Source: Candidatus Desulfarcum epimagneticum (lineage in GTDB: Bacteria > Desulfobacterota > Desulfobacteria > Desulfobacterales > CR-1). Taken from it: DNA of 64,000 nt. Positions 6,747 to 63,619 of the stretch are shown here, piece by piece (the stretch's first letter is position 1; each line of letters opens with the position of its first letter). The stretch lies in NCBI GenBank assembly GCA_900659855.1, contig CAACVI010000050.1:85902-149901 (forward strand), written 5' to 3'. A program made the position numbers and the translations under genes. The notes below the pieces were generated by a model that saw only the letters and a list, made by a program, of their open reading frames with translations, ran no database searches and was not told where the DNA came from.

Positions 6747-6876
6747 TTGATGGCGTCGTAAAAAATCCGATCTACGGCGTTGCGGCGCTTATTTTTAATT
6801 GAGGCATACTACATGTATTGCCTCAATTAAAAATAAGCGCTACGCCTTGTATATCGAACTTTTTACGACGCCGTCC
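6747..6876. repeat. About 130-bp imperfect palindromic intergenic repeat, copy 1 (tolA-tolB spacer)
   Basis: A perfect 22-bp stem (6785-6806 pairs with 6819-6840) flanks the 12-nt loop tactacatgtat, and weaker pairing extends through both arms. A near-identical copy lies at 59854-59984. Confidence 0.8.
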
Positions 6877-6896
6877 ATTTTTGAAAGGGGCTTTTT

Positions 6897-8258: not shown

Positions 8259-8296
8259 GAAAATTAAGGAAAACAAAATAGAGGAGGAAAGGGAAA

Positions 8297-8932
8297 ATGC
8301 GAAAAAAGTTTTTGATTGGCCTGTCTCTTACTTTTATCATTCCGGGGCTTGTGATGGCCCTTGCTTCGTGCGCGGGGAAAATGGGAGATCGCAGTTCCGG
8401 GATGAGCCAGCCGGCCATGTCCCAGTCGGAAGAGGGGACGATGGCGGCGGAAGAACAGCCGGCTGTGGCGGAAGAGACGGCGGCTGAGACGGACACGGCC
8501 GTTTCCGAGCGGGAGGCGGAGGCGGACTTCCGTGAGGCCACGACCCCGACTCCCCTGACCCGGGAACAGATCGCGGCCATGGCCATTCGGGAAAGAAACA
8601 TGTTCATCAATGAAGATGTGTACTTTGACCTTGACAGCTCAAGCTTAAACGCTGTGGCCCGGACCGTTCTCCAGGAAAAAGCCGAATGGCTGCTTAAAAA
8701 CAGCCGGACAAAGGTGATCATTGAGGGACATTGCGATGATCGGGGCTCCAATGAATACAACCTGGCCCTGGGCGACAGACGCGCCGAAAGCGTCAAAGCC
8801 TTCCTGGTGGATCTCAATGTGGGGCCTGAGCGGATGAGCACCATCTCTTACGGAGAAGAAAGCCCTGTGGATTCCGGAAAAAATGAGGAGGCCTGGGCCA
8901 AAAACAGACGCGCCCATTTTACCATTGATTAA
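8297..8932 (+). CDS. pal: Peptidoglycan-associated lipoprotein Pal (OmpA family)
   Basis: It has a lipobox (MALASC) and an OmpA-like C-terminal domain (IEGHCDDRGSNEYNLALGDRRAESVKAFL...AKNRRAHF). Confidence 0.9.
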   Translation: MRKKFLIGLSLTFIIPGLVMALASCAGKMGDRSSGMSQPAMSQSEEGTMAAEEQPAVAEETAAETDTAVSEREAEADFREATTPTPLTREQIAAMAIRERNMFINEDVYFDLDSSSLNAVARTVLQEKAEWLLKNSRTKVIIEGHCDDRGSNEYNLALGDRRAESVKAFLVDLNVGPERMSTISYGEESPVDSGKNEEAWAKNRRAHFTID

Positions 8933-8974
8933 TTGATTTGACGCGTTTTCATGTTTTTCAGGCCAAACGCCATG

Positions 8975-9011
8975 ACAGGCGGCGACATTCTTATCGCCGC
9001 CTGTTTTATTT
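8975..9011 (+). terminator. Rho-independent terminator-like hairpin after pal
   Basis: An 11-bp stem (acaggcggcga / tcgccgcctgt) with an 8-nt loop, followed by ttttattt. Confidence 0.55.
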
Positions 9012-9027
9012 GGGGGGGGAATGACGG

Positions 9028-9981
9028 ATGAATATGAAAAAAAAACAACCTCGCCCGGCCAGGCTCCTGTTTTTTTCAGCGCTGGCCGCCATCGCCTGCC
9101 TTTCCGGCTGCAAGTCGCTTAATCAGCGCATCGAACGTATCGAGACGCTTTCTTTGGCCAATCAAAAAGAGAATCAGGGTCTTAAAACCCTTCTGAATCA
9201 GCGCCTCGCCGATTTGAGCCGGGCGGATCAGATCAACGACGATCTTCGGAGAAAGTCCGCCGGGACCCGGGCCGATCTGGCCCAGATCATCGAAAGGGCG
9301 AAACGGCTGGCCGGGCGCATGGATGAGCTGGAGCATCATGTCTCCAATGAGCTGAATTCCCAGAGGCTCTCCCTGGAGAGCGCGCTCAGCCGGATGTCGG
9401 GCCTGTCCCGGGAGATCGGTCAGGGCCGTGACCGCTTCGATCTTTTTGAGCGCCGGACGCGCGAATTTGAAAAAGAGACGCGCGCGGCGCTGAAGAGACT
9501 GAAGACCGTCCGCGCCGCCCCGCCGCCGGTCCGGACGACCCCCCGACCCTCTAAAACGGACGCGCCCAAAACCGGGTCTTTGAAAACGGCGTCTTCCAAG
9601 TCAAAAATGAAAGACAAGGCGGTTTACGCGCTGGCCAAAAAAGCCTTTGACAAAGGGGACCTTGAAGCGGCGAAAAAAGGTTTCCTGGATTTTTTGAAAA
9701 ACCGTCCGAACTCTTACCTGGCCGGGAATTGCCAGTTCTGGCTGGGCGAGATACACTACCGGGAAAAAAAATACGAAAAAGCCATTGTGGCCTACCAGAA
9801 TGTCCTTGAGAAATATCCCTCCAGCAACAAGGCGTCGTCTTCCCTTTTGAAACAGGGATACGCTTTTATCAAACTCAAGGACAGGCCCAACGCGTTTCTT
9901 TTTTTAAATGAAGTCATCCGGAGGTTTCCGGGGTCCCGGGAGGCGAGAATCGCGGAAAAGAAACTCAAAAGCATCCAATGA
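9028..9981 (+). CDS. cpoB: Tol-Pal system protein CpoB/YbgF (coiled coil + TPR)
   Basis: 317 aa with an LSGC lipobox or signal, a coiled-coil N-terminal half and a C-terminal TPR region (YALAKKAFDKGDLEAAKKGFLDFL...YPSSNKASSSLLKQGYAF). Confidence 0.8.
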   Translation: MNMKKKQPRPARLLFFSALAAIACLSGCKSLNQRIERIETLSLANQKENQGLKTLLNQRLADLSRADQINDDLRRKSAGTRADLAQIIERAKRLAGRMDELEHHVSNELNSQRLSLESALSRMSGLSREIGQGRDRFDLFERRTREFEKETRAALKRLKTVRAAPPPVRTTPRPSKTDAPKTGSLKTASSKSKMKDKAVYALAKKAFDKGDLEAAKKGFLDFLKNRPNSYLAGNCQFWLGEIHYREKKYEKAIVAYQNVLEKYPSSNKASSSLLKQGYAFIKLKDRPNAFLFLNEVIRRFPGSREARIAEKKLKSIQ

Positions 9982-9985
9982 CCCC

Positions 9986-10534
9986 ATGAACCCGGACCGG
10001 AATGAGACTGCCCGGGGCCATGACGCCCCGGGGACAGTGAGAATTGTTGGAATCGACCCCGGACTCGCCGCCACAGGGGTGGGCATCGTCCGGGGCTCAG
10101 GCCATCGCATCCAAAGCTGCTCCCACACCTCCATCAGCTCTTCCCCCAAAGACTCCCTTCCGGATCGGCTCAACGTGATTTTTTCGCGCGTCCGGGATAT
10201 CCTGGACGCGGAAAAGCCCCATCTGATGGTCATTGAAGACATATTCTCGAACCGGGCGCACCCCGCTTCGGGGATCACCCTGGGCAAGGTGACCGGCGTC
10301 ATCCTTCTGGCCGGGCGCCGGGCCGGCGTGCCTGTTCTGGAAGTCCCGGCCCGGGAGGCCAAGAAGGTGATCACCGGAAACGGCGCCGCCACCAAGAGCC
10401 AGATGGAGCTTTCGGTCCGGCGCATATTGAGCCTCAAAAAACCCATTCGTCCCCACCACGCCGCGGACGCCATGGGCATGTCCCTCATGGGGTTTTACCG
10501 GTATGGCCCGGCCATCGCTCGCGCGGCGTCCTGA
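9986..10534 (+). CDS. ruvC: Crossover junction endodeoxyribonuclease RuvC
   Basis: It contains RIVGIDPGLAATGVGIV, LMVIEDIF, GNGAATKSQM and HHAADAM. The internal ATG at 9986 (just after the cpoB stop) is preferred to the track start at 9908. Confidence 0.88.
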   Translation: MNPDRNETARGHDAPGTVRIVGIDPGLAATGVGIVRGSGHRIQSCSHTSISSSPKDSLPDRLNVIFSRVRDILDAEKPHLMVIEDIFSNRAHPASGITLGKVTGVILLAGRRAGVPVLEVPAREAKKVITGNGAATKSQMELSVRRILSLKKPIRPHHAADAMGMSLMGFYRYGPAIARAAS

Positions 10535-13491: not shown

Positions 13492-13554
13492 AAAACAGGT
13501 TGACAACAAAGCGCCGCCCGTGAGACAATGTCTTACAAAAAAGGAGGCGTGGAT

Positions 13555-13773
13555 ATGGAGACCACACTGACGATTCGTCTGTCCGAGGAGATGAAAAAGT
13601 CCCTGAATGATTTGTGTCAATCAGAGAGAAAGGGGCTCAGCGAGCTGGTGAGGGATTCTTTGGAAAACCACCTGGCGGTTAAGCGTTTCAGGCAGCTGCG
13701 CTCAAAATCTTTGCCTTTCGCGGAGGCGTCCGGTTTTCTCACGGACGAAGACGTGTTTGAGGGACTGACGTGA
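13555..13773 (+). CDS. Ribbon-helix-helix-type antitoxin
   Basis: AGGAGG lies 7 nt upstream of the ATG at 13555. The N-terminus reads METTLTIRLSEEMKKSLNDL. The stop overlaps the GTG start of the PIN gene (GTGA). Confidence 0.7.
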   Translation: METTLTIRLSEEMKKSLNDLCQSERKGLSELVRDSLENHLAVKRFRQLRSKSLPFAEASGFLTDEDVFEGLT

Positions 13774-14189
13774 AAATCGTTTTTGACTCAAATGTCTATA
13801 TCGCGGCTTTCGCGACCCATGGGATTTGTCACCTGCTTTTTGAGAGCGGCATACGCGATCATGATGTGTTCTCAAGCGCTTTTATACTGGGCGAAGTCAA
13901 CGCGAAACTGATTGAAAAAATGAAGCTGCCGGCCAAAACAGTTCATGAGATTATGGACTATTTAAGGGCTCAGACGATTGTGAACCGCCCGAAAATTCAA
14001 TTGTCGGGAATATCCAGAGACCCCGATGACGACAATGTGATTTCTCTGGCGGTGGAAGCCGGGGCCGGGCACATCGTCACCGGCGACAAAGACCTTCTGG
14101 ACCTGAAACGATACCCATCCATCCGCATTGTCTCTCCCAGAATGTTTTCTGAAATTTTGAGGTCTCAAGACATTTATCCGGATGAATAA
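13770..14189 (+). CDS. PIN-domain toxin
   Basis: 139 aa with IVFDSNVYIAA and DPDDDNVISLAVEAGAGHIVTGDKDLL (PIN acidic residues). It is coupled to the upstream RHH gene. Confidence 0.8.
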   Translation: MKIVFDSNVYIAAFATHGICHLLFESGIRDHDVFSSAFILGEVNAKLIEKMKLPAKTVHEIMDYLRAQTIVNRPKIQLSGISRDPDDDNVISLAVEAGAGHIVTGDKDLLDLKRYPSIRIVSPRMFSEILRSQDIYPDE

Positions 14190-15205: not shown

Positions 15206-16166
15206 CCGCAGAGAGTTCATTCGCCGCTCGGTCAAAGCCGGGTTGGTTTCGGCGTCCGCGCTGGTCGCGGGATGGGGGCTGCGCGATACGAATCCTCCGG
15301 CGTTGGAGCCGGCCACCGAGGCGCTTGGCGGCATCCCTGATTTTTCTAAAGCGCCCGGCGCAGGTCCGGCCATGGCCATTGGAAAAGGAACGGATCGGGG
15401 CGATTTGGCGCGACGGACCTTAGGGGCCATGGGGGGGATGAGGCGCTTTGTCCAGCCCGGAGATCGGGTGGTGATAAAGGTCAACGCGGCATTTGCCTCA
15501 CCTCCGGCTATTTCGGCCACCTCTCATCCGGACCTGGTCAAAGAGGTGACGCTTGCATGCGTTCAAGCCGGGGCTTCCGATGTGGTGGTCACCGACAACC
15601 CCATACACGATCCGGCCGGCTGTTTTCGGCTCACCGGGATCGGGGCGGCCGCGGAAGAAGCCGGGGGCCGGGTTGTCCTGCCGGCGGCGGACCTGTTTGC
15701 GAATGTCTCCCTGCCCGGGGCCCGGTTGATCAGGGACTGGCCGGTATTGGTCGGACCGCTGGCCAAGGCGGACCGCCTCATCGGTGTGGCGCCGCTCAAG
15801 GATCATCATCGGAGCGGCGCTTCCATGACCATTAAAAACTGGTACGGCCTTCTGGGCGGCCGCAGAAACGTCTTTCATCAGGACATTCACACCATTATCG
15901 CCGAACTGGCGGCCCTGGCGCGCCCGACCCTGGTGATTTTAGACGCCGTGACCACCATGAGGCGAAACGGTCCCACGGGCGGATCGATATCGGACCTGGA
16001 CGACACAAACACGCTTGTGGCCGGCATTGATCCGGTGGCGGTGGACGCTGTCGGCGCCTGGATTTTAGGACGGGAACTGAGTCAGCTCCCCCATCTTCAG
16101 CAGGCGGCGGACGCCGGCCTGGGCGTTCTCGATTACCGAACCCTCAACCCCGTGGATGTCCCATGA
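15192..16166 (+). CDS. Tat-signal DUF362-like protein
   Basis: The N-terminus (MTDINRREFIRRSVKAGLVSASALVAG) is a twin-arginine signal. The body (VVIKVNAAF...PDLVKEV...VVTDNP...KDHHRSG...LVILDAV) resembles DUF362. The stop overlaps the next ATG (ATGA). Confidence 0.7.
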   Translation: MTDINRREFIRRSVKAGLVSASALVAGWGLRDTNPPALEPATEALGGIPDFSKAPGAGPAMAIGKGTDRGDLARRTLGAMGGMRRFVQPGDRVVIKVNAAFASPPAISATSHPDLVKEVTLACVQAGASDVVVTDNPIHDPAGCFRLTGIGAAAEEAGGRVVLPAADLFANVSLPGARLIRDWPVLVGPLAKADRLIGVAPLKDHHRSGASMTIKNWYGLLGGRRNVFHQDIHTIIAELAALARPTLVILDAVTTMRRNGPTGGSISDLDDTNTLVAGIDPVAVDAVGAWILGRELSQLPHLQQAADAGLGVLDYRTLNPVDVP

Positions 16167-18112
16167 GACTTGTCATTGTAAGACGGATTTGCCAGGCGTT
16201 TTTTCTGCTTTTATTGACCGGCAGCTGCCTTGTCACCACCGTCGGCGACCGGTGGCTCCAACTGCGGGGCTGGCCGGTCAGCTGGCTCCTGGAATTGGAC
16301 CCACTGGTGGGACTGGCCACGGTTTTGACCACAGGGCGCCTTTACAAGGGGCTGCTCTGGGGCGCGGCCATCCTGGCGGCCACCGCTTTGCTGGGCCGTT
16401 TTTTTTGCGGATGGCTCTGCCCCCTGGGAACCCTTCAGCAGATGGTCGGCGCATGGGCCGACAAGCGGCGCGGCAGACGGGCGCGGGCCGCGGGACGGCA
16501 ATCCCATCCCGGCCGGCGGATCAAATACCTGCTGCTGATCGGATTGCTGACCATGGCGGCCGCCGAGCTTGCCCGGCCATTTGTGACCATTGCGTCCGCC
16601 GGTGGCTGGATACCGCCCGGCGCGGCCATTCTGGCGGGTCTGGCCCTGATCCGATGGGGGCGGGCGCGAAGGGAAAATCGTTCATGGACCGTGTCCGCCG
16701 GCCGGACCATGGCCGGCGCCGGATGCCTGGTTCTGGTTTTGGGCGTGATGTTCCCGGGACATCGTCTGCTGACAGCGGGGTTGCAGACCGGGCTTTTAGA
16801 TCCCATCCCCCTGGTCTATCGGTCCGTTTCGCTGGCGGCGCTGCCCCTGCTTTCCCCCGGGGCCGGCGCCATTGTCGTGACCGGCGGATTGCTTACCGGC
16901 GGGGTATTTGTTCTGGTTTTGGCCCTTTCGGCCTGGCGTCCCCGGTTTTACTGCCGGTATATCTGTCCGCTGGGGGCCTTGCTGGGGATCACGGCAAAAT
17001 GGTCTTTGTGGCGGATGGGGCGACGGGACACGGGCGGTGATGAATGCGTCGGCTGCGGGCGATGCGATCATCATTGTGAAGGCGCCTGCGCGCCGGCCGA
17101 TCAGATCCGGTGGGCGGAATGCGTGCTGTGTTACAATTGCCGGGACGACTGCCCGGAGCGGATCCTGGGGTATGCGGCGCTGCCTTCGACCACAGGAGAG
17201 ATCGCCGGGCCGGATTTAAACCGCCGGGCTGTGATCGCCGCCGGGGCCTGCGGCGCGCTCCTTCTGCCTTTGGCCCGTTTGGGGGATCCCCTGGGAGTGG
17301 GGTGGCGACCCGACCTGGTTCGACCGCCGGGAGCGTTGACGGAATCTGAATTTTTGAAGCGATGCGTAAAATGCGGGCAATGCGTCCGGGTCTGCCCGAC
17401 CCGTGTGATACAGCCGGCTATGTTTGAGGCGGGCGTGGAAGGCCTCTGGACGCCTTGTCTTGATTTTCGGCTGGGCCTCAGCGGCTGCCGGCACAACTGC
17501 ATCGCCTGCGGTCATGTCTGCCCCACAGCCGCGATCCGTCCTCTTGAGCTGGATGAGCGGATGGGCCGGGGCCGTTTTGCCGAAGCCGGTCCGATCCGGA
17601 TCGGGACCGCGTTTATGGACCGGGGACGCTGTCTGCCCTGGGCCATGGGAACCCCTTGCATCGTTTGCCAGGAGAACTGCCCGGTGAGCCCCAAGGCCAT
17701 CACTACCCGGACCGTATTGGAACCGGTGGCCGGGCTGGATCGGCTGACGGTGAGCCATGTAAGATCCCGGTCCATTCATTTAAACCTGCCCCCGACCCGC
17801 AGACCTTTGGCCGGCGGGGATTATTTTCTGGTCGGACCCGCGGGGCCGAAAAACGCGCTGCGGATCGTCGGTCATCAGGCGGACCAAATTGAGCTGGAAG
17901 GCGCCCCGGATGTGGCCGGGCTCCGGAAGGACGCGTCGGCCGCCGCGCATGTCCGGCTGCAGCAGCCTTTTGTGGACCCCCATCGATGCGTCGGCTGCGG
18001 CGCCTGTCAGCACGAGTGCCCGGCGCGCGGCCGGGCCGCGATTCGTGTGACCGCCGAAAACGAGACACGAAGCCGGGACCATGCCTTGCTGGCCGGCGCC
18101 GGCATTTCATAA
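16163..18112 (+). CDS. Membrane polyferredoxin: NapH-like N-terminal half fused to a NapG/MauM-like C-terminal half
   Basis: 649 aa. The TM half has the motifs RFFCGWLCPLG and RFYCRYICPLGA. An internal RR-containing hydrophobic segment (LNRRAVIAAGACGALLLPLA) is followed by RPPGALTESEFLKRCVKCGQCVRVCP. There are six Cys-cluster motifs in total. Confidence 0.8.
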   Translation: MRLVIVRRICQAFFLLLLTGSCLVTTVGDRWLQLRGWPVSWLLELDPLVGLATVLTTGRLYKGLLWGAAILAATALLGRFFCGWLCPLGTLQQMVGAWADKRRGRRARAAGRQSHPGRRIKYLLLIGLLTMAAAELARPFVTIASAGGWIPPGAAILAGLALIRWGRARRENRSWTVSAGRTMAGAGCLVLVLGVMFPGHRLLTAGLQTGLLDPIPLVYRSVSLAALPLLSPGAGAIVVTGGLLTGGVFVLVLALSAWRPRFYCRYICPLGALLGITAKWSLWRMGRRDTGGDECVGCGRCDHHCEGACAPADQIRWAECVLCYNCRDDCPERILGYAALPSTTGEIAGPDLNRRAVIAAGACGALLLPLARLGDPLGVGWRPDLVRPPGALTESEFLKRCVKCGQCVRVCPTRVIQPAMFEAGVEGLWTPCLDFRLGLSGCRHNCIACGHVCPTAAIRPLELDERMGRGRFAEAGPIRIGTAFMDRGRCLPWAMGTPCIVCQENCPVSPKAITTRTVLEPVAGLDRLTVSHVRSRSIHLNLPPTRRPLAGGDYFLVGPAGPKNALRIVGHQADQIELEGAPDVAGLRKDASAAAHVRLQQPFVDPHRCVGCGACQHECPARGRAAIRVTAENETRSRDHALLAGAGIS

Positions 18113-20120: not shown

Positions 20121-20175
20121 AACCGGCGCTTTCAAACCGCTATTTTTTATACATTTTTACGCCACCGCTGACAAT

Positions 20176-20385
20176 ATGGAGACCACACTGACGATCCGTT
20201 TGTCCGAGGAGGTGAAAAAGTCCCCGAATGATCTGTGTCAATCGGAAAGAAAAGGGCTCAGCGAGCTGGTGAGGGATTTGTTTGAAAATTACTTGACGAT
20301 TAAGCGTTTCAGACAGTTGCGCTCAAAATCTTTTCCTTTCGCGGAGACAACCGGTTTTCTCACGCATCAAGACGTTTTTGAGTAA
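20176..20385 (+). CDS. Orphan RHH antitoxin paralogue (second copy of the 13555 gene)
   Basis: 69 aa, METTLTIRLSEEVKKSPNDLCQSERKGLSELVRD..., clearly alignable at the DNA level with 13555-13773. Confidence 0.6.
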   Translation: METTLTIRLSEEVKKSPNDLCQSERKGLSELVRDLFENYLTIKRFRQLRSKSFPFAETTGFLTHQDVFE

Positions 20386-20390
20386 CTGAC

Positions 20391-20453
20391 GTAAAAATCG
20401 GTTTTGACTCAAATGTCTATATAGCGGCTTTCGCGACCCATTGGATTTATCAC
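20391..20453 (+). pseudogene. Remnant of the partner PIN toxin gene (start codon lost, truncated)
   Basis: The region aligns with 13770-13833, but GTG has become GTA and the similarity stops after about 63 nt. Confidence 0.6.
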
Positions 20454-20527: not shown

Positions 20528-20605
20528 TGGCGTCCCCAAGGGGATTTGAACCCCTGTTGCCGGCGTGAAAGGCCGGTGTCCTGGACCAGGCTAGACGATG
20601 GGGAC
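20528..20605 (-). tRNA. tRNA-Glu (anticodon UUC), CCA encoded
   Basis: The minus strand reads GTCCCCATCGTCTAGCCTGGTCCAGGACACCGGCCTTTCACGCCGGCAACAGGGGTTCAAATCCCCTTGGGGACGCCA. It folds as a cloverleaf with the anticodon loop CTTTCAC. Confidence 0.9.
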
Positions 20606-20617
20606 GCGGGATGGAGA

Positions 20618-20693
20618 TGGTGGGCCGTGCTGGGCTCGAACCAGCGACTCTCTGCTTAAAAGGCAGATACTCTACCGACTGAGTTAACGGCCC
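20618..20693 (-). tRNA. tRNA-Lys (anticodon UUU), CCA encoded
   Basis: The minus strand reads GGGCCGTTAACTCAGTCGGTAGAGTATCTGCCTTTTAAGCAGAGAGTCGCTGGTTCGAGCCCAGCACGGCCCACCA, with the anticodon loop CTTTTAA. Confidence 0.9.
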
Positions 20694-54873: not shown

Positions 54874-54932
54874 TTTTCAGGTCCGGGGACGGATTCCCGG
54901 GGTCATGAAAGGATTTGAGAAAAGGTTGGATT

Positions 54933-56219
54933 ATGATGAAAAATTTTTTAATGGGACTGGGCGGCGTGAAACTCCAATATGAAAAGCCGGAGGGCGTTTT
55001 CCCGGAGCCGGAAACCATCGTTCCGCCTCAAAACGCCACCCTTCTGATGGCCCCCGGCGGGGGAGTTCTGGAAAAAAGAGCGCTGGCCCCGGGAGATTCC
55101 GTTGAGGCCGGCCGGCGTCTTCTCCTTTATACGGACGACGAGCGATGCGCGGTTTCGCCGATCTCCGGAACAGTGGCGTCCATATCCACGGTTTCAGACG
55201 ATCAGGGCCGGGACTGGACCCAGGTGTCCATCACGGGGTCTTCGGACCCGGACCCCGGGGTCGAGCTGGATGATCTGGCCGGGGAGCCATCCCTTGAGGG
55301 CGCCCGCCGCTGTCTGGCCCACGTTCCCGGCGCGCCCTGCCTGGACTGCTTTTCCAGTGATTCCGAATCTCTTGAGCCCCGGAACATGGAGGTCATCGTC
55401 ATCAACGGCGTCTCTTCCGACCTGATGCTTCTGACCGCCCCGTTTCTTTTGTTTTCCGCCGCCGACGCCATCGGAAAGGGCGTGGAGGTTCTGAAAAAGA
55501 TCACCGGGGTCGGGCGCGTGATCCTGGCGGTCCCGTCGGATTTCTCCGGCTCCCTGGACGTGACGGGGGCCGAGATCCAAAAGGTTTCCCCCCTCTATCC
55601 CCAGGGAAACCCGGCCCTGATCATGAAAAACGTTCTGGGCATGGAGGTTCCGGCCGGCGGCTCCCCGGCCGATCTGGGCGTGGCCTTTTTCAGCCTGGAG
55701 GCCGCGATCTCCCTGGGACAGGCCTTTGAAACCGGGCGCCCGCCCCAGGAAAAGCTTTTGACCCTTGTGGACAAGAAGGGGGCCGGACGGCTGGTTTACG
55801 CGAGAATCGGAACGCCTGTGGGCCATGTGATCCAAAGCTGCGGCGTGGAAATCGATGAAGACGATCTCATCATCATGGGGGGCCCCATGACGGGCTCCGC
55901 CGTGTATTCGGAGAATTTTCCGGTGAGGCCGGACACGGACGGCCTGATGATTCTCAAAAAAGATGATGTCCATTATTACAGCGATTACCCGTGCGTCAAC
56001 TGCGGGGAATGCGTCCGGGTCTGCCCGACCGGCGTGCCGGTGAACATGCTGGTCCGTTTTCTGGAGGCGGGCCGCTACGAGGAGGCCGCCGAGTCCTGGG
56101 ACCTCATGTCGTGCGTGGACTGCGGCCTGTGCGCCTTTGTGTGCGTGGCCCGGATGCCGGTTTTTCAGTATATCCGGCTGGCGAAACACGAGATTTCAAA
56201 AACAAACGCCGCGGCTTAA
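54933..56219 (+). CDS. rnfC: RnfC-like subunit (two 4Fe-4S motifs retained, NADH/FMN motifs apparently missing)
   Basis: It has an N-terminal barrel-like domain (PGDSVEAGRRLL...SPISGTVASI) and the C-terminal motifs CVNCGECVRVCP and CVDCGLCAFVC. There is no GGAGFP-like or ECEP-like motif in the middle domain. Confidence 0.75.
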   Translation: MMKNFLMGLGGVKLQYEKPEGVFPEPETIVPPQNATLLMAPGGGVLEKRALAPGDSVEAGRRLLLYTDDERCAVSPISGTVASISTVSDDQGRDWTQVSITGSSDPDPGVELDDLAGEPSLEGARRCLAHVPGAPCLDCFSSDSESLEPRNMEVIVINGVSSDLMLLTAPFLLFSAADAIGKGVEVLKKITGVGRVILAVPSDFSGSLDVTGAEIQKVSPLYPQGNPALIMKNVLGMEVPAGGSPADLGVAFFSLEAAISLGQAFETGRPPQEKLLTLVDKKGAGRLVYARIGTPVGHVIQSCGVEIDEDDLIIMGGPMTGSAVYSENFPVRPDTDGLMILKKDDVHYYSDYPCVNCGECVRVCPTGVPVNMLVRFLEAGRYEEAAESWDLMSCVDCGLCAFVCVARMPVFQYIRLAKHEISKTNAAA

Positions 56220-56237
56220 AAAAGCGAGGATCCATAT

Positions 56238-57197
56238 ATGTTTAACGGGAAAAAAGTCATCGTCTCACACGCTCCCTTCTCTCACGTCGGGAGCCGGATT
56301 TCGGAAAGAAGCCTTCACAAGATTTTCGCGCTTCTTCCGGCCGTCTTTCTGGGAATCTTTTTTTACGGAGCGCCGGCTTTGGGAGCGGCGGCCCTGTCCG
56401 TTTCCACCGCCGTCATGTGGGAGTCGCTGTTCAACCGGGTGGCCAAACGCCCGGACACGGTGGCGGACGGCGACGCCGCGCTCATCGGTCTTCTGTTCGC
56501 GGCGCTGATCCCGGCCACAAGCCCCTGGTGGTTTGTGGTCGTCGGCACATTCATCGCCGTGGTCATCGGAAAGCAGATATTCGGAGGCATCGGGGCCAAC
56601 CCGGTGAACCCGGTTCTTTTGGCGGTGGCCATTCTGATGGTGTCCTGGAAAGACCTGCTCGACTTCGACGCCGCTTTGCTGAATTACGACCTGGCCTTTA
56701 AGGCGCTTGAGCCCCTGAAGGCTCTCAAAGGGCTCGGCGTGGAGGCCGCGGCCGATTTCAGCATGGGAGACCTCCTCATGGGAAGGCAGGTGGGAGGCGT
56801 CGGCGCCACGTTCGGCCTGGGCCTCATCGCCGGGGGGCTGTACCTCATCGCCAGGGGATTCATCCGCTGGGAGATCCCCGTCTCTTTTCTGGCCGGGGTC
56901 TTTGTGACCGCGCTTTTTTTCAATATGGCCGACCCCGCCGCCTACGCCGGCCCCCTGTTTCACATATTCACGGGATACACCCTTATCGGGGCGTTTTTTC
57001 TGGCCGCCGAAGACGCCTCCTCGCCGGTCCATCTCATCCCCATGCTGATATACGGGGCCGGGGCCGGAATCATGGTCATACTGATCCGGAACATCGGGGT
57101 TTACGCCGACGGAGTGGTTTTTGCCATACTGGTTTTCAATTTAATCAATCCCCTTTTGGATAAAATAAGGCCAAAGGCCATGGGAAAGGTGATTTGA
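56238..57197 (+). CDS. rnfD: Rnf complex membrane subunit RnfD
   Basis: 319 aa and polytopic, with GKQIFGGIGANPVNPVL...AAEDASSP typical of RnfD/NqrB. Confidence 0.88.
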   Translation: MFNGKKVIVSHAPFSHVGSRISERSLHKIFALLPAVFLGIFFYGAPALGAAALSVSTAVMWESLFNRVAKRPDTVADGDAALIGLLFAALIPATSPWWFVVVGTFIAVVIGKQIFGGIGANPVNPVLLAVAILMVSWKDLLDFDAALLNYDLAFKALEPLKALKGLGVEAAADFSMGDLLMGRQVGGVGATFGLGLIAGGLYLIARGFIRWEIPVSFLAGVFVTALFFNMADPAAYAGPLFHIFTGYTLIGAFFLAAEDASSPVHLIPMLIYGAGAGIMVILIRNIGVYADGVVFAILVFNLINPLLDKIRPKAMGKVI

Positions 57198-57198
57198 C

Positions 57199-57801
57199 AT
57201 GCGTGAAATGATAAAAATGGCGGTGACGCTCACCGTTCTGTGCTTCATCTCAGGGCTGCTTCTGGCCGCCCTCCGAAACGGAACAAAGGATAAGATCGAA
57301 TACCAGGAGCTTAAATTCGTCAAAGGCCCGGCCATTCTCGACATACTGGCCGGCGCTTCCAACAATCCCCTGGAAGACCGGTTCAAACTCATGGACGGAG
57401 ACGTGGAAAGAAGTTTTTTCGTGGGCCTGTTCGATGACCGGGACACCGCCATGATCGCCTTTGAAAGCTCGGGAAAAGGATATGGCGGCGATATCGGCGT
57501 CATGGCGGGCGTGACTCTTGGGGATGACAAGATTTCAGGCGCGGGCGTCACCACCCACAGCGAAACCCCGGGCGTGGGATCCAGGGCCAAGACCGAGCCG
57601 GGCTTCGCGGCCCAGTTCAAGGGCCTGGACACCAACCAGGTCTTCAAGGTGAAAGGCGACGGGGGGCAGGTGGACGCGCTCTCAGGCGCCACCATCACTT
57701 CCAGGGGAGTCGCGGCGGCCCTGACCGACGCCGGAGCCGTGTACAACCGTTTAAAACCCCGGTTGATGGCCAAACTCAAGGAAATCAGGGACAAACGCTG
57801 A
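57199..57801 (+). CDS. rnfG: Rnf complex FMN-binding subunit RnfG
   Basis: An N-terminal anchor, HSETPGVGS, and the covalent-FMN motif DALSGATITSRG. Confidence 0.85.
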   Translation: MREMIKMAVTLTVLCFISGLLLAALRNGTKDKIEYQELKFVKGPAILDILAGASNNPLEDRFKLMDGDVERSFFVGLFDDRDTAMIAFESSGKGYGGDIGVMAGVTLGDDKISGAGVTTHSETPGVGSRAKTEPGFAAQFKGLDTNQVFKVKGDGGQVDALSGATITSRGVAAALTDAGAVYNRLKPRLMAKLKEIRDKR

Positions 57802-57816
57802 CAGACCGTTTCATCA

Positions 57817-57836
57817 GCCTCGATTAAAAAGAAGCG
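57817..57836. repeat. 20-nt fragment matching the right core of the palindromic repeat family
   Basis: gcctcgattaaaaagaagcg here versus gcctcgattaaaaataagcg at 59927-59946, a 19 of 20 match. Confidence 0.4.
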
Positions 57837-57864
57837 AAAAAACAAAATATAACGGGAGATAATC

Positions 57865-58479
57865 ATGGCGACAAAGTCGATCGCTCAGGAATTCGCAAAG
57901 GGCCTGTGGGCGGAAATACCGCCTTTCCGGCTGGTTTTGGGTCTTTGCCCCGTGCTGGCGGTGACCAAGACCGTGGAGAACGGCATCGGGATGGGGCTTG
58001 CCACCACATTCGTGCTGATCTGCTCCAACCTGCTGGTCTCCGCCCTGCGCAAAGCCATACCGACCAAGGTCAGGATCGCCTGTTTCATCATTGTCATCGC
58101 CACATTTGTGACCATTGTGGAGCTGCTGATGCAGGCGTACGCCTACCCTCTTTTTCAGAAACTGGGAATATTCATCCCGCTCATCGTGGTCAACTGCGTT
58201 GTCCTGGGCCGGGCCGAGGCGTTCGCCTATAAAAACGGCGTGGCCGCCTCTGTGGCCGATGGTCTGGGTATCGGGGTGGGATTCACCCTTTCCCTGGCGG
58301 CCCTGGGCGCTGTTCGGGAATCTTTGGGAAGCGGGGCGCTCACCTTCTGGGGAGACATCGCGATTCCCATGCTGTTCGGCCCTTCGTTTCAACCCTTTTC
58401 ATTCATGGTGGAGGCCCCCGGCGCATTTGTCTGCCTGGGTCTGATGCTTTGCGGCATGAATCTTTTGGGAAAAAAATAG
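57865..58479 (+). CDS. rnfE: Rnf complex membrane subunit RnfE
   Basis: LGLCPVLAVT...FIPLIVVNCVVLGRAEAFA, the RnfE/NqrD pattern. Confidence 0.9.
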   Translation: MATKSIAQEFAKGLWAEIPPFRLVLGLCPVLAVTKTVENGIGMGLATTFVLICSNLLVSALRKAIPTKVRIACFIIVIATFVTIVELLMQAYAYPLFQKLGIFIPLIVVNCVVLGRAEAFAYKNGVAASVADGLGIGVGFTLSLAALGAVRESLGSGALTFWGDIAIPMLFGPSFQPFSFMVEAPGAFVCLGLMLCGMNLLGKK

Positions 58480-58489
58480 GAGATTACAC

Positions 58490-59065
58490 ATGGGCGATTT
58501 CATAGTCCTTGCCATCAGCTGCATATTCGTCAATAACATTCTTCTGGCCCAGTACCTGGGAAACTGCCCGTTCCTCGGAACGTCCAAAAAGATGGAGACC
58601 GCCATCGGCATGTCCATGGCGGTGATCTTTGTCCTGGTCATGGCCGGGGTCATCACCTGGATCACGGACAACTACGCGCTCAAACCCCTTGGCCTTGAAT
58701 ATTTGCGAACCATCGCCTTTATCCTGGTCATCGCGTCCCTGGTTCAGTTTGTGGAGATGTTTTTGAAAAAAAGCATTCCCGCCCTGTACGCGGGCCTGGG
58801 GATTTTCCTGCCCCTGATCACCACCAACTGCGCGGTCATGGGCGTGTGCCTGATCAACATCAACGAGGAGTACGACTTCATAAACGCCCTGGTGGCCTCA
58901 TTCGCCTATGCCGTGGGCTTCGGCGTGGCGCTTATCATCTTCGCCGGTCTCCGGGAGCGGACTTTCCTGGCCCGGGTTCCCAGACCCCTTCAGGACACCT
59001 CCATCGGCCTGGTGACCGCCGGCATCATCGCCCTGGCCTTTTTCGCCTTTAAGGGGATGGCTTAA
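58490..59065 (+). CDS. rnfA: Rnf complex membrane subunit RnfA
   Basis: NNILLAQYLGNCPFLG...FLPLITTNCAVMGV, the RnfA/NqrE pattern. Confidence 0.9.
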   Translation: MGDFIVLAISCIFVNNILLAQYLGNCPFLGTSKKMETAIGMSMAVIFVLVMAGVITWITDNYALKPLGLEYLRTIAFILVIASLVQFVEMFLKKSIPALYAGLGIFLPLITTNCAVMGVCLININEEYDFINALVASFAYAVGFGVALIIFAGLRERTFLARVPRPLQDTSIGLVTAGIIALAFFAFKGMA

Positions 59066-59255: not shown

Positions 59256-59492
59256 TCAAAGGCGCCGGCCGGATTCCGCTTTGATCCGTTCCGCAATCCA
59301 GACTTTGATGATAGACTGTCTTGTGACGCCGATTCGGGTCGCCTCGCGGTCCAGGGAGCGGATCATCCAAGCCGGAAAATTAACATTGACCCGCCTTTGC
59401 TCTAAAGCGGGCCGTTTTTGGGTGGCGAGATCCAGATACGGCGTGATATCCTCGCCATTATCGAAAAGTTCGTCAAGTTTTTCAGCTTTCAT
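59256..59492 (-). CDS. brnA: BrnA-type antitoxin (RHH/CopG-like C-terminus)
   Basis: 78 aa, RVNVNFPAWMIRSLDREATRIGVTRQSIIKVWIAERI. It overlaps brnT by 11 nt. Confidence 0.75.
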   Translation of the reverse strand: MKAEKLDELFDNGEDITPYLDLATQKRPALEQRRVNVNFPAWMIRSLDREATRIGVTRQSIIKVWIAERIKAESGRRL

Positions 59493-59745
59493 TATATAGT
59501 CTCCTTTCGCCTTTTCCGGACCTTCGGACTGAAATAATTCTGACGCGGCTTTCCCGTATTGTGAAAAAAGCGCTCCATAGTTTGCCCCGATAAGAAGCGA
59601 TTAGGGCATATCGGGATTCAGTTTCACTTTTGGCCTGAACTTGGAGTCTGTTCACATCTTCCCAAAGGCGTTTGGCCTCTTCGAAGTCAATTCCATGTTT
59701 CTTTTTGTTCGTTTCGCTTTTATTCGGGTCATATTCAAATTCCAT
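59482..59745 (-). CDS. brnT: BrnT-type toxin (DUF497 ribonuclease family)
   Basis: MEFEYDPNKSETNKKKHGIDFEEAKRLWED...RIISVRRS. The internal ATG at 59745 is preferred. Confidence 0.8.
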   Translation of the reverse strand: MEFEYDPNKSETNKKKHGIDFEEAKRLWEDVNRLQVQAKSETESRYALIASYRGKLWSAFFTIRESRVRIISVRRSGKGERRLYNES

Positions 59746-59853
59746 GATGCCCCAAGATATCACAGACCCCACATTCCCTCAATAAAAATCATTCGGCGAG
59801 GCGCTTCTCCGCCATTTTTTTTGCATTCCCTTGTCTTGTGTGATACGGATTCA

Positions 59854-59984
59854 TTGATGGCGTCGTAAAAAATTCGATCTACCGCGTTGCGGCGCTTATT
59901 TTTAATCGAGGCATACTACATGTATTGCCTCGATTAAAAATAAGCGCCACGCCTTGTATATCGAATTTTTTGACTTAGCCATCC
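59854..59984. repeat. About 130-bp imperfect palindromic intergenic repeat, copy 2
   Basis: A perfect 22-bp stem (59892-59913 pairs with 59926-59947) with the same 12-nt loop as copy 1. The two copies are near-identical over roughly 110 nt and diverge in the right-hand terminus. Confidence 0.8.
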
Positions 59985-60112
59985 CAAGCTTTTTTACGAG
60001 TTTATCATTTATTGTCTCAAAATTTTTTTCACGCTTTTCCGGAAAGCGCCGGGGCGGGCCCGGGGACTCCAGGGAGAGCCGATTTGACGGAACCGGACAG
60101 GGGGAGGATATC

Positions 60113-61522
60113 ATGGGGGATGATCAAAAGAAGGGGAAAAAACTTGCGATCCTGGGCGCTTTTGTTTTGGCCGCGTTTTTGATGACGGCGCCGCCGGCGA
60201 TCTCCAAACCCCAGGGAGAAACAGGGGAAGAGCTGTACCAGAGGCTCTCTGAAATCGCCGCTGGAAAGGGCGATATCAAGCTGTTTGAAACCTTAAAGCG
60301 CGAGTCCGGGAAACTGGACTGGACAAAATCCCGGGAAATGGAATTTTCAGGAAACCTTCGCATTCTTAAATCCGGCGCGGACCCGGCCCCGGAAAGCGCC
60401 GGAAACGTGTATCTTTTAAGGAGGCTTGACGGGGAGGTTTTTATTTTATCGCTTCCCGAAGACCCCGCCATGCTGGGGGAGAACGCGGATTCCTTTTACG
60501 CCGGCCTTGAAGGCATGTACAAAAACAAAATGATCTTCAAGGTAGGGACAATCCGGGGGCAAGTGGAAGGGCATGTGTATGACTTTGTCCGTCTCATGGA
60601 GAAACCCCAACCTCTTTTGTTGGATAAGATATTTAAAATATTCATTATACTTATGCTTTTCTTTGTCATGGTCGGCATGGGGCTCACCTTGACCTTAAAG
60701 GAGTTCGCCCTGGTCTTTAAAAAACCGAGGGGAATCATCGTCGGCCAGATCCTGCAATTCGGACTGATGCCCCTTCTTGCCATGGGACTGGGGCATCTGC
60801 TGGGGTTTTATGAGCGCTATCCCTTTATTTTTGTGGGCATGATTCTGATCACCGCGATCCCGGGGGGCGTGACCTCGAATCTGATGACCTACTACGCCAA
60901 AGGGGATCTGGCTCTTTCCATATCCCTGACATCCTTTTCCACCGTCCTTTCCATTTTTTTCACGCCCATGCTGCTGGCGCTTTATTGCGCGAATCTGCCT
61001 GAAATTGTGATTCCGGTGAAAGTCGTGGTTCAAACCATTCTGATCCTGGTCATCGCGCCCCTTGCCACGGGCATGTCCCTGCGACATAAATGGCCGGCGT
61101 TCGCGGAAAAATCCACGCCGTTTTTTTCCGGGTTGGGAATCGTGGCCCTGCTGATACTGGTTGTGGCGGGAATTTCAAGCAATCTGAACTCGTTTGCGGA
61201 CACGGCCCGGTATGGCGTCAAATTTTACTCGACGGTTTTCTCCCTGACCTTTTTGGGAATGATCCTGGGCGTTTTGTTTTCCAAAGCGTTTTCCGTCAAC
61301 AATTACCAGACCCGGGCGATTTCCCTTGAAACCGGTTTGCGAAACGCCTCACTGGCCATGACCATCGCTTTGCTGATCCAGGACGCCACCGGGGATTTCC
61401 ACAGCTCCATGTTCTTCACCTCCGGAATATTCGGATTGGCGATGTATTTCGCCGGGCTTCTTTCAATCGTTTTGTACAAGCCGCTGCTGCCGGTCCAGCC
61501 CGGGGAATCGTCCTCCGGCTGA
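60113..61522 (+). CDS. Bile acid:sodium symporter (BASS/SBF) family transporter with an extra N-terminal extracytoplasmic domain of roughly 170 aa
   Basis: The RBS ggagg precedes the ATG at 60113. A signal or TM segment (LAILGAFVLAAFLMTAPPA) is followed by a soluble segment and then the BASS core (GMGLTLTLKEF...GLMPLLAMGL...IPGGVTSNLMTY). The track start at 59954 lies inside the repeat. Confidence 0.8.
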   Translation: MGDDQKKGKKLAILGAFVLAAFLMTAPPAISKPQGETGEELYQRLSEIAAGKGDIKLFETLKRESGKLDWTKSREMEFSGNLRILKSGADPAPESAGNVYLLRRLDGEVFILSLPEDPAMLGENADSFYAGLEGMYKNKMIFKVGTIRGQVEGHVYDFVRLMEKPQPLLLDKIFKIFIILMLFFVMVGMGLTLTLKEFALVFKKPRGIIVGQILQFGLMPLLAMGLGHLLGFYERYPFIFVGMILITAIPGGVTSNLMTYYAKGDLALSISLTSFSTVLSIFFTPMLLALYCANLPEIVIPVKVVVQTILILVIAPLATGMSLRHKWPAFAEKSTPFFSGLGIVALLILVVAGISSNLNSFADTARYGVKFYSTVFSLTFLGMILGVLFSKAFSVNNYQTRAISLETGLRNASLAMTIALLIQDATGDFHSSMFFTSGIFGLAMYFAGLLSIVLYKPLLPVQPGESSSG

Positions 61523-61621: not shown

Positions 61622-61638
61622 TTTTTACGATGCCGTCC
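61622..61638. repeat. 17-nt fragment matching the terminal arm of the palindromic repeat family
   Basis: tttttacgatgccgtcc here versus tttttacgacgccgtcc at 6860-6876, a 16 of 17 match. Confidence 0.35.
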
Positions 61639-61696
61639 GATCTGTTTTTTACGGGTTTATCAATTTCCTTAAGTGTGAAAAAGGAGCAATGTAGAA

Positions 61697-62926
61697 ATGC
61701 CTGAAAGAAAAGTATTCGTTAACAGTTTAAAACTTAAGAATCTTTTGTCTTTTGGCGATAAAAGCGATGATATTGAACTGGGTCCTTTGAATGTCCTGAT
61801 CGGGAAAAATTCGTGCGGAAAATCAAATTTCATTGAAGCCTTTTCTTTGTTAAAATCTTTGCCGAAAGATTTGCTTGCTCCCATACGAAGAGGCGGAGGG
61901 ATCAGGGAATGGCTTTGGAAAGGTTCCGACGAAAGTTCGGTCGCGGAGTTGAATTTGTCGCTCAATTATCCCGGGGACCCTATTCCTTTGAGATACAGGC
62001 TTAACTTTTCGGAAGTCAGCCAGCGCCTTGAGATTTTTGATGAAGCCATTGAGAGCGCTCGCAAAACCCATGAATCAGAGGATGACGTCTATTTTTATTA
62101 CCGGTATATGGGTGGCTCGCCTGTTTTAAATGTTCGAAATCCTGAAAGTCGCGCTCCGGAACAAAACGATGGAAGGGGCGGGATCAAGCGAAAACTCCAC
62201 AGGGAAGACTTGGGGATCAATCAGTCTGTTTTGTCCCAGAGAAAAGATCCGGATCTGTACCCGGAGCTGACGTTTATCAGCAATCGCTTTTCAGAGATCA
62301 GGTTGTTCAGGGACTGGAATCTTGGAAGGCGCTCGCCGCCTCGTCTTCCCCAAAGCCCGGATCTGCCGGAAGATTTTCTTTTGGAAGATATGAGCAATCT
62401 TGGGCTTGTCCTGAACAATCTCCAGCATGAACCAGCGGCCAAGCGGGCTATTTTGGAGAATTTGAATTATTTTTATGATGAATTTGATGATATTTCGACG
62501 AAAATTCATGGCGGAACCGTTCAGATTTTTCTGCACGAAAAAAAATTGACCCAGCCTGTTCCGGCCACGCGCCTTTCCGATGGAACGCTTCGTTTTTTAT
62601 GCCTGATCGTTATTCTATGCCATCCCGACCCTCCGCCGCTGATCTGCATTGAAGAGCCGGAATTGGGATTGCATCCTGATATTTTACCGCATGTCGCCAG
62701 GATGCTTCTGCAAGCCTCTGAAAAAACACAGCTGATTGTGACGACCCACTCCGATATCATTGTCGATGAGCTGACGGACCGCCCGGATTCAGTGGTGGTT
62801 TGTGAAAAACATGACGGTTTGACGAAGACGCGCCGCCTGGACGCAGAGTCGCTTAAAGGGTGGCTTAAAGAATATTCTTTGGGAGAGTTGTGGCGAAGTG
62901 GCGAAATCGGGGGAAATCGATGGTAA
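61697..62926 (+). CDS. ABC/SMC-type (AAA_21/AAA_15-like) ATPase, OLD-family-like
   Basis: Walker A LIGKNSCGKSN, signature-like LSDGTLRF, Walker B LICIEEPELGLHP, H-loop LIVTTHS. The gene is AT-rich relative to its neighbours. Confidence 0.8.
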   Translation: MPERKVFVNSLKLKNLLSFGDKSDDIELGPLNVLIGKNSCGKSNFIEAFSLLKSLPKDLLAPIRRGGGIREWLWKGSDESSVAELNLSLNYPGDPIPLRYRLNFSEVSQRLEIFDEAIESARKTHESEDDVYFYYRYMGGSPVLNVRNPESRAPEQNDGRGGIKRKLHREDLGINQSVLSQRKDPDLYPELTFISNRFSEIRLFRDWNLGRRSPPRLPQSPDLPEDFLLEDMSNLGLVLNNLQHEPAAKRAILENLNYFYDEFDDISTKIHGGTVQIFLHEKKLTQPVPATRLSDGTLRFLCLIVILCHPDPPPLICIEEPELGLHPDILPHVARMLLQASEKTQLIVTTHSDIIVDELTDRPDSVVVCEKHDGLTKTRRLDAESLKGWLKEYSLGELWRSGEIGGNRW

Positions 62927-63531
62927 AAATTTATGTCGAAGGCGGCGGAGATCAGGCGAGATCGAAATCTCAGTTCAGGAGGGGATTCAGCGAGTTTTTT
63001 TCCGGAGCCCTTCCTGAAGGCAAAAAGCCGAGAATCATTGCCTGCGGCAGTCGGAAAAAAGCGTATGACCGCTTCCACACGGCCATTCGTGAAAATAAAA
63101 ATGAATTTTGCATGCTCCTTGTGGACAGCGAAGGGCCTGTCCATGATGGTATCAAACGATGGGATTTTTTGAAAATCCGAAGGGCTGATGGATGGGAGAA
63201 GCCCGACGGCGCCCATGAAGACAATGTTCAGTTCATGGTTCAATGCATGGAAAGCTGGTTTCTGGCCGATAAAGATTGTCTTGCGGATTTCTTTGGCCAA
63301 GGTTTCAATCCCGGGGCGCTTCCGAACAATCCGGAAATTGAAAGGGTTCCCAAAAAGGATGTGTTTGGAGGTTTAAAAAACGCCTCCCGGCATGCAAGGA
63401 CCAAAGGCGGGTATAAGAAAGGACGTCATTCTTTCGAAATTCTGGCAAAGATCAATCCCCAAAAAGTGTGTGAGGCGTCTGATCACGCGAGAAATTTGAT
63501 TGACACCTTGAAAAATAAAATGGTAGGTTAG
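62920..63531 (+). CDS. DUF4276-like (Toprim-like) protein
   Basis: The internal ATG overlaps the ATPase stop (ATGGTAA). The protein reads MVKIYVEGGGD...LLVDSEGPV...QCMESWFLAD, the conserved acidic pattern I associate with DUF4276. Confidence 0.7.
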   Translation: MVKIYVEGGGDQARSKSQFRRGFSEFFSGALPEGKKPRIIACGSRKKAYDRFHTAIRENKNEFCMLLVDSEGPVHDGIKRWDFLKIRRADGWEKPDGAHEDNVQFMVQCMESWFLADKDCLADFFGQGFNPGALPNNPEIERVPKKDVFGGLKNASRHARTKGGYKKGRHSFEILAKINPQKVCEASDHARNLIDTLKNKMVG

Positions 63532-63619
63532 ATCGTCGCATTGGGTTTGAAAAATTCGTAAAAACCGATCAGGCGCCGTGATGTTTTGACGCAAAGCAAA
63601 TGGTCCGGGGAAGGCAAAG

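Follow-up and report, generated by a model that had tools for sequence, protein, structure and literature searches.

The gene pair and its assignment to HEC-01

The locus described here lies within a 64,000-nucleotide stretch of DNA (the window) on contig CAACVI010000050.1 of Candidatus Desulfarcum epimagneticum, a magnetotactic member of the Desulfobacterales living as an ectosymbiont of a marine protist. It consists of two forward-strand genes, the first encoding an ABC ATPase (A) and the second a DUF4276 protein (B). Their coordinates, together with those of the other features, are provided in Table 1. Each translation matched a PADLOC model over nearly its entire length. The HEC-01A model (PDLC04177) aligned with A at an E-value of 7.4e-178 (589.5 bits; residues 6-409 against model positions 3-393 of 393), and the HEC-01B model (PDLC04201) aligned with B at 4.2e-78 (residues 2-201 against positions 4-200 of 202). 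Because these full-length matches are near-perfect and all other PADLOC models score far lower for the pair, the locus is regarded as a canonical member of the catalogued candidate system HEC-01, the two genes of which adjoin here in one operon. We consider this assignment to be virtually certain. In NCBIfam there was no qualifying family for A and no match of any kind for B.

HEC-01, or Hma-embedded candidate 01, was described as an ABC ATPase accompanied by a TOPRIM protein (Payne et al., bioRxiv 10.1101/2024.01.29.577857). It is thus already named, modelled in PADLOC (PADLOC-DB v2), and annotated structurally as an ABC ATPase with a TOPRIM partner, and it has been challenged with phages on two occasions with mixed results. 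Since the system is already catalogued, the window locus represents a further member of a known family and not a discovery. No trigger, substrate, or experimental structure has been reported for HEC-01 in the literature.

The two coding regions share seven nucleotides, because the junction between them reads cgATGGTAAaaa, with the start codon of B at 62920-62922 and the stop codon of A at 62924-62926. As the start of B, the ATG at 62920 is favored over an upstream GTG at 62890 both by the N-termini of homologs and by the gene call on the source contig. The overlap, ATGGTAA, had been pointed out in an earlier, sequence-only reading of the window and is confirmed, implying that A and B are probably coupled in translation. 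A Shine-Dalgarno-like sequence precedes each gene. That preceding B, GGGGA, falls within the Gly-Gly codons of the conserved C-terminal tail of A, and these codons (GGAGG or GGGGG) may double as the ribosome-binding site for B. A promoter scan around the pair returned one promoter-like site, fewer than shuffled sequence gave, and a terminator scan revealed no terminator-like site in the gap 3' of B.

The guanine-plus-cytosine (GC) content of the pair is 46.9%, as compared with a window mean of 57.9% (standard deviation of 3.9%), and the AT-richness formerly judged by eye is accordingly borne out. The pair has the lowest GC content of any segment in the window, and only 0.6% of equal-sized intervals are as low. 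At third codon positions its GC content is 0.49, versus 0.61-0.71 in the Rnf, transporter, and hydrolase genes. The pair is judged to be intact and to have been acquired horizontally.

The ATPase and its DUF4276 partner

All of the motifs previously quoted for the 409-residue ATPase, namely the Walker A, signature, Walker B, and H-loop sequences, are present in the translation. In alignments of 29 and 30 orthologs, each is either invariant or conserved at a level of at least 90% across phyla. The conserved residues include those of the Walker A motif (G36-x-N38-x-x-G41-K42-S43-N44), the signature (R292-L-S-D-G-T297), the Walker B motif and D-loop (C317-I-E-E-P-E322), the H-loop (T-T-H351-S), and the tail ending in GGNRW. 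A candidate Q-loop, R216-x-P218-Q219, shows the same degree of conservation. The Pfam matches of A are to AAA_21 (2.9e-38, full length) and AAA_15 (5.9e-18), and the protein is 100% identical to one from Candidatus Desulfarcum epimagneticum annotated as 'SMC domain-containing protein'.

The AlphaFold2 model of A, with a predicted local distance difference test score (pLDDT) of 80 and a predicted template modelling score of 0.83, displays an ABC head that has a beta-rich insert (residues 83-144) and lacks a long coiled coil. The confidence of the model is low in two conserved stretches, 148-164 and 210-233. The Foldseek matches of the model are to SMC heads (6e-14), Rad50, GajA (8e-11), and, at ~1e-11, PtuA of Septu and of retrons Eco7/Ec78; AriA structures are not among the top 50. 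An HHalign comparison of the A profile with P2 Old gave a probability of 96.5% (E = 7.5e-10), with the region containing the signature, Walker B motif, and H-loop aligned, and the only PDB matches obtained with phmmer were weak ones to OLD 6p74 (4.8e-5) and the retron Eco8 OLD nuclease. On the basis of its motifs and model, A is predicted to be a compact ATPase of the ABC/SMC-head type, without a coiled coil.

An SMC-type ABC ATPase is also paired with a Toprim-domain protein in RecF-RecR. The top Foldseek matches of A are SMC and Rad50 heads, and its N-terminus weakly matches RecF, Rad50, and SMC_N, as might be expected if the pair were a housekeeping DNA-repair module of the RecF/RecR or SbcCD kind with no role in conflict. 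The NCBIfam RecF and Rad50 scores of A, however, are all far below their cut-offs, and B keeps the full acidic set typical of nucleases and matches DUF4276 alone in Pfam. Moreover, the pair is patchily distributed and foreign in GC content, it is flanked by different genes in every genome, and in some it is embedded in BREX operons. A repair function is considered to be extremely improbable.

The assignment of B to DUF4276, proposed in the sequence-only reading, is upheld by a Pfam match of 8e-23 that covers positions 1-191 of the 192 in the model. The AlphaFold2 model of B has a pLDDT of 94.3 and a core with the order b-a-b-a-b-a-b, where b and a denote beta-strands and alpha-helices. Glu 7 follows the first strand (residues 2-6), and Asp 69 and Glu 71 are positioned at the end of the third (residues 63-69). 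B thereby exhibits the Toprim layout, in which a glutamate follows strand 1 and an acidic motif of the DxD type follows strand 3, in the form of a D-x-E variant. Residues E7, G9, G10, D69, E71, and D117 are invariant in an alignment of 32 sequences. The best thematic match in Foldseek, albeit a weak one, was to the OLD nuclease 6p74 (probability 0.77, template modelling score 0.44, E = 0.3), which was also the only structural match with a probability above 0.5. A Foldseek search against the viral structures of BFVD gave nothing meaningful, and a sequence-profile search of the PDB with the B alignment gave no match. Likewise, no sequence-profile similarity of B to Toprim_Old, DUF4435, RloB, or Toprim_2/4 was observed.

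In a 2025 Nucleic Acids Research paper on Menshen, both DUF4276 and RloB were assigned to the Toprim superfamily, and the TOPRIM protein of HEC-01 has been reported to contain a conserved metal-binding site on alignment to Burkholderia OLD (Payne et al., 10.1101/2024.01.29.577857). From the motif layout, the weak Foldseek match, and this literature, B is predicted to be a Toprim-like, metal-dependent nuclease effector. The Toprim-like character suggested earlier is thus supported on these three counts, but it was not recovered by sequence profiles. Given that the ATPase motifs are conserved and that E7, D69, E71, and D117 are invariant in a confidently modelled protein, the pair is likely to be catalytically competent.

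Eighty loci obtained from a genome scan served as the sample for gene order, junctions, and context. The taxa represented include the Desulfobacterales, Myxococcota, Latescibacterota, Nitrospirota, Acidobacteriota, Gemmatimonadota, Alpha- and Gammaproteobacteria, Planctomycetota, Binatia, and Chloroflexota, among others. In all 79 loci that could be judged, B is immediately preceded by an A ortholog on the same strand; the remaining one (L061), where the contig ends 41 nucleotides before B, was left out of the count. Genes overlap at 65 of the 77 junctions measured, by four nucleotides (GTGA) at 48 of them and by seven (RTGGTRA) at 17, that of the window included, and the context CTGGTGA occurs at nine further junctions. 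A stop/start overlap is also present in the contig of the closest relative. For both proteins, the nearest relative among the loci is found in a metagenome-assembled genome of the Desulfobacterales (L001), the A and B proteins of which are 72% and 61% identical to those of the window, respectively. A and B co-evolve, with their pairwise ortholog identities giving a Mantel correlation of r = 0.69 over 75 pairs, a value reached in 0 of 999 permutations. The lack of a DUF4276 match and of joint conservation, either of which would have refuted the sequence-only reading, is contradicted by the strong match of B and by the presence of both genes together at all 79 judgeable loci.

Both families are large. 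That of B comprises more than 4,800 clusters at 90% identity and 2,493 representatives at 50% identity (E <= 0.001), and that of A at least 8,000 clusters at 90% identity. Among the best 150 of the 2,493 B representatives, there is no fused ATPase-DUF4276 form; all are stand-alone proteins of 286 residues or fewer, most of them with about 200. In two of the loci, A appears to be disrupted, by a frameshift in L011 (6833-7998) and by an in-frame stop codon in L053 (6800-7995), and the DUF4276 gene is intact in both. These disruptions could reflect either pseudogenization or assembly error.

Genomic context and proposed function

In 12 of the 80 loci (L057, L018, L021, L030, L034, L039, L047, L051, L066, L069, L071, and L077), the pair is located after BrxC in a type 1 BREX operon, and in nine of these PglX was found downstream. 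The PADLOC E-values for the BREX neighbors are 0 for BrxC, 0 for PglX, and 1e-91 for BrxA. In L057 (1996-15998), A begins 13 nucleotides past the end of BrxC, and the stop codon of B overlaps the start of PglX by four nucleotides. Because these gene boundaries overlap or nearly abut, the pair in L057 appears to be co-transcribed with BREX. Two loci from the Vicinamibacterales, L039 and L047 (~6796-10384), contain tandem paralogous pairs in the order A1-B1-A2-B2. BrxC is located upstream in both, and PglX was found downstream in L047, where the second pair shares only ~47% and ~37% identity with the proteins of the window.

Such placement would be expected if the pair were an accessory effector of methylation-based systems (BREX, MADS, Hma), reliant upon a partner methyltransferase/ATPase complex for self/non-self discrimination, in which case the window copy would be an orphan without autonomous function. 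The discovery of HEC-01 inside Hma systems and the inactivity of the standalone version in the hands of the same authors point in this direction (Payne et al., 10.1101/2024.01.29.577857), as does the behavior of the eight-gene MADS system. There, mad3 and mad4 are both accessory genes, deletion of either weakens defense, and mad5 can be deleted only when mad2 or mad3 is deleted as well. Yet 68 of the 80 loci, and the window, are devoid of adjoining BREX or methyltransferase genes, and the genes are nonetheless intact with their catalytic motifs kept. [quoted passage not shown] An obligatory accessory role for the pair is thus regarded as unlikely.

The reading that we favor, with a probability of roughly 0.6, is that the window pair is a horizontally acquired member of HEC-01 that would function as an ATPase-gated nuclease in abortive anti-phage defense, its mechanism being drawn from analogy. 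That the pair serves in immunity at all is considered probable. By analogy with PARIS, P2 OLD, Gabija, and Septu, an oligomer of the ATPase would probably sequester or gate the DUF4276 nuclease. In PARIS, sensing of a trigger causes the AriA hexamer to release the AriB tRNase, and in P2 OLD the Toprim site becomes open for tRNA cleavage when the tetramer is destabilized. Further analogies come from Gabija and Septu. In HEC-01, the cue might be a phage protein, an aberrant nucleic acid, or altered nucleotide levels, upon the sensing of which ATP binding or hydrolysis would release or activate the nuclease. Cleavage of tRNA/RNA or DNA would then abort the infection. The window pair would act alone, because no methyltransferase, BREX, or Hma genes adjoin it. 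This specific scheme of gated release is put forward tentatively, and we would give it rather less than an even chance.

A number of observations weigh against a defensive nuclease of this type. A HEC-01 representative placed in E. coli provided no protection against any phage of the panel employed (Payne et al., 10.1101/2024.01.29.577857). Outside of the BREX operons, only three of 139 immediate neighbors (39 loci) match any PADLOC model, these being other ABC ATPases or AbiLi-like proteins, and the rest are metabolic. Because of this count, the association with classical defense islands is weak outside BREX. No homologs of B were detected by tblastn in 50,697 phage records or 72,556 plasmid records, and a PHROGs scan with B gave no match. 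As for B itself, its acidic motif is D-x-E and not the canonical DxD, Foldseek returned no match at E <= 0.001, and Pfam searches of 32 homologs at E <= 10 yielded DUF4276 only and no Toprim family. Finally, an HHalign comparison of the B profile with P2 Old gave a probability of 0.2%, although this employed a single-sequence template and is of low sensitivity.

A broader proposal is that pairs of the HEC-01 type constitute a further, autonomous class of OLD-like immunity, in which an ABC ATPase would gate a very divergent and always-split Toprim variant (E...D-x-E) acting as an abortive RNase or tRNase. Such a class would be confined to environmental bacterial chromosomes, without carriage by phages or plasmids, and plugged into BREX in some lineages. 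We hold this proposal to be doubtful. If true, a HEC-01-type pair situated after BrxC, and usually just upstream of PglX, could supply a nuclease activity that BREX lacks. HEC-01 is a large family distributed across many environmental phyla, and the two published phage tests disagree. The interest rests on its mechanism and environmental abundance and not on the window copy, which is one more data point, from a protist ectosymbiont, and introduces no new principle. The A-then-B coupling and the BrxC-PglX placement should be useful in the design of mechanistic studies, for which the conserved E, D-x-E, and E-D residues of B and the GGNRW tail of A are targets for mutagenesis.

As can be seen in Table 1, toxin-antitoxin modules flank the pair on both sides. 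The neighbors named in the sequence-only reading (BrnTA, repeat copies, and a hydrolase) are all present, and a transporter of the SBF family, which it did not mention, separates BrnTA from the pair. In the window and on the source contig (L081), no methyltransferase, BREX, Hma, or other recognized defense gene adjoins the pair. The most fitting description of the region is that of a small, variable patch with abundant toxin-antitoxin modules, the pair being a compositionally foreign two-gene insert. The term defense islet is apt only in part, in that these modules abound locally but no other recognized defense system is present.

A pair so located, between BrnTA on one side and a CopG/BrnA-like gene and YoeB-YefM on the other, could be a selfish addiction or toxin-antitoxin-like module, in which the ATPase would regulate a toxin, the nuclease, and both would be kept by way of post-segregational killing. 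The foreign composition is in keeping with this, as is the Pfam description of AAA_21 as a 'putative AbiEii toxin, Type IV TA system' domain, and in most genomes the pair occurs by itself as an insertion of two genes amid housekeeping ones. Enrichment in phages and plasmids is typical of addiction modules, however, and no copies were found in the records searched. The recurrent embedding in BREX operons points, rather, to immunity. A toxin-antitoxin role and abortive-infection defense are, in any event, mutually compatible. We consider a purely selfish module to be distinctly improbable.

Table 1 Features of the ATPase-DUF4276 locus and its surroundings. Positions are those of the window unless indicated otherwise.
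Feature	Position (nt)	Strand	Residues	Remarks
Gene A (HEC-01A, ABC ATPase)	61697..62926	+	409 aa	open reading frame, ATG start
Gene B (HEC-01B, DUF4276)	62920..63531	+	203 aa	open reading frame, start ATG 62920
A/B stop/start overlap, ATGGTAA	62920..62926	+		sequence read
Shine-Dalgarno-like AAGGAG before A	61681..61686	+		10 nt upstream of A start; sequence read
Shine-Dalgarno-like GGGGA before B	62910..62914	+		5 nt upstream of B start; sequence read
A, Walker A, GKNSCGKSN	61802-61828	+	36-44	translation
A, signature, RLSDGT	62570-62587	+	292-297	translation
A, Walker B, LICIEEPE	62639-62662	+	315-322	translation
A, H-loop, TTHS	62741-62752	+	349-352	translation
A, conserved C-terminal tail				LGELWRSGEIGGNRW; pattern LGxLWxxGExGGNRW
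B, motif YVEGGGD	62938-62940 (E7)	+	E7	translation
B, motif LLVDSE	63124-63132 (D69-S-E71)	+	D69-S-E71	translation
B, motif QCMESWFLAD	63241-63270	+	108-117 (E111, D117)	translation
RnfC, D, G, E, A	54915-59065	+		upstream of pair
BrnT/BrnA toxin-antitoxin	59256-59772	-		48.4% GC, likewise compositionally foreign
SBF-family transporter	60113-61522	+		between BrnTA and pair
Alpha/beta-hydrolase	starts 63620			downstream of pair
CopG/BrnA-like gene and YoeB-YefM	4459-5587 of source contig L081	-	128 aa (CopG/BrnA-like)	past hydrolase, beyond window end
Nested-palindrome repeat, MITE- or REP-like, 133 nt	59853-59985			between BrnT and transporter; 28-nt terminal inverted repeats
Second copy of 133-nt repeat	6746-6878			95% identical over 118 nt
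Degenerate end fragments of 133-nt repeat	61622-61662, 63548-63585			flank pair; fragments also border transporter gene

The 133-nucleotide palindromic repeat, which resembles a miniature inverted-repeat transposable element (MITE) or a repetitive extragenic palindrome (REP), contains a perfect 23-bp central hairpin with arms at 59891-59913 and 59926-59948. Between its two copies, a compensatory change from T·A to C·G keeps the hairpin perfect. Three occurrences of the motif TTTTTACGRGTTTATCA were counted in the window, each at an islet border, versus 0.11 expected by chance. The repeat belongs to no Rfam family, with only sub-threshold hairpin matches being obtained, and has no exact match in metagenome contigs. 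The possibility that the pair is carried as cargo of this element, raised by the motif copies on either side of it, was rejected, because the flanking fragments form no left-end...right-end pair around the genes; they are outward-facing ends of separate degenerate copies of an intergenic repeat. An integron cassette was also considered and dropped, the hairpin being a perfect palindrome with no attC-like features by eye and the gene orientations being mixed.

Two other repeats were observed in the window. A direct repeat of 280 nucleotides, 88% identical between 13553-13832 and 20174-20453, encodes a small antitoxin of the ribbon-helix-helix/CopG type and the first ~20 codons of a PIN (VapC-like) toxin. 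The first copy runs on into a 139-residue open reading frame (13770-14189), and the second is truncated and lies ~75 nucleotides from tRNA-Glu (20528-20605) and tRNA-Lys (20618-20693). The 6.6 kb between the copies harbor genes for DUF6599, DUF362, a 4Fe-4S protein, and an aldo-keto reductase. This repeat pair may be left over from an integration or a duplication. A 45-nucleotide stretch, 89% identical between 17363-17407 (in a 4Fe-4S gene, 16163-18112) and 55992-56036 (in an RnfC-like gene, 54915-56219), probably represents a conserved motif for ferredoxin cluster binding rather than a mobile repeat.

Comparison with known systems

The sequence-only reading had proposed a candidate split-OLD system resembling PARIS/AbiL. 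The combination of an ABC ATPase with a Toprim-like protein is indeed in accord with the literature, and the Nature paper on PARIS counts 'AbiL and MADS3-4' among the ABC-ATPase plus TOPRIM systems, but the pair belongs to neither PARIS nor AbiL, nor is it MADS, Gabija, or a fused OLD. PARIS is likewise split, with the ABC ATPase AriA (AAA_15/21) accompanied by a small Toprim-type effector, the DUF4435 tRNase AriB. Neither DUF4435 nor AriB was matched by B, whether in Pfam and PADLOC at E <= 0.1 or with the 32 homologs at E <= 10. The PADLOC AriA model (PDLC02980) scores 1.2e-38 against A, far below HEC-01A, and the coordinates of the match are those of a generic AAA_21 hit (31-357 against 1-304 of 304). 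PARIS, furthermore, often resides on phage satellites and OLD, too, is often found on mobile elements, whereas the HEC-01 family, as searched with B, is absent from the phage and plasmid collections and from PHROGs.

The OLD nucleases, including P2 Old (class 1) and those of known structure from Thermus and Burkholderia, contain a homologous ATPase, and B shares with them the pattern of a glutamate following the first strand and an acidic pair following the third. In OLD, however, a single polypeptide contains both the ATPase and the Toprim domain, fused, whereas the HEC-01 pair is split in all loci examined. The acidic motif of the OLD Toprim domain is DxD and that of B is D-x-E, without sequence-profile similarity to the Old Toprim region.

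The ATPase fold and motifs of A are held in common with GajA of Gabija, PtuA of Septu, and AbiLi of AbiL. Gabija, however, features a fused Toprim domain and the UvrD-like helicase GajB; in the pair the ATPase and nuclease-like proteins are separate, and no helicase gene adjoins them. The partner in Septu is the HNH protein PtuB and that in AbiL is the RloB-like AbiLii, neither of which is present or matched by B. The PADLOC AbiLi model scores 1.4e-23 against A, far weaker than HEC-01A, and B gave no AbiLii or RloB match in Pfam, in PADLOC, or with the 32 homologs.

A likeness is also provided by Mad3-Mad4 of the Pseudomonas aeruginosa MADS system, which similarly combine an ABC ATPase with a protein listed among the DUF4276 homologs (2025 Nucleic Acids Research Menshen paper). 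The PADLOC mad3 model matches A over its full length at 1.1e-20, but in NCBIfam its MAD3 score reaches 86.8 bits, where the cut-off is 420. MADS comprises eight genes and is linked to methylation; the pair has no adjoining mad1, mad2, or mad5-8, and in PADLOC B matches HEC-01B only.

With HEC-01, by contrast, the correspondence is complete in that the same two genes occur, an ABC ATPase followed by a TOPRIM-like protein, and orthologs of the pair are situated within multi-gene systems of the methylation type, here BREX. The window copy differs in that it is standalone, lying within neither Hma nor BREX, and in that its host is a Desulfobacterales symbiont; it is otherwise indistinct from HEC-01.

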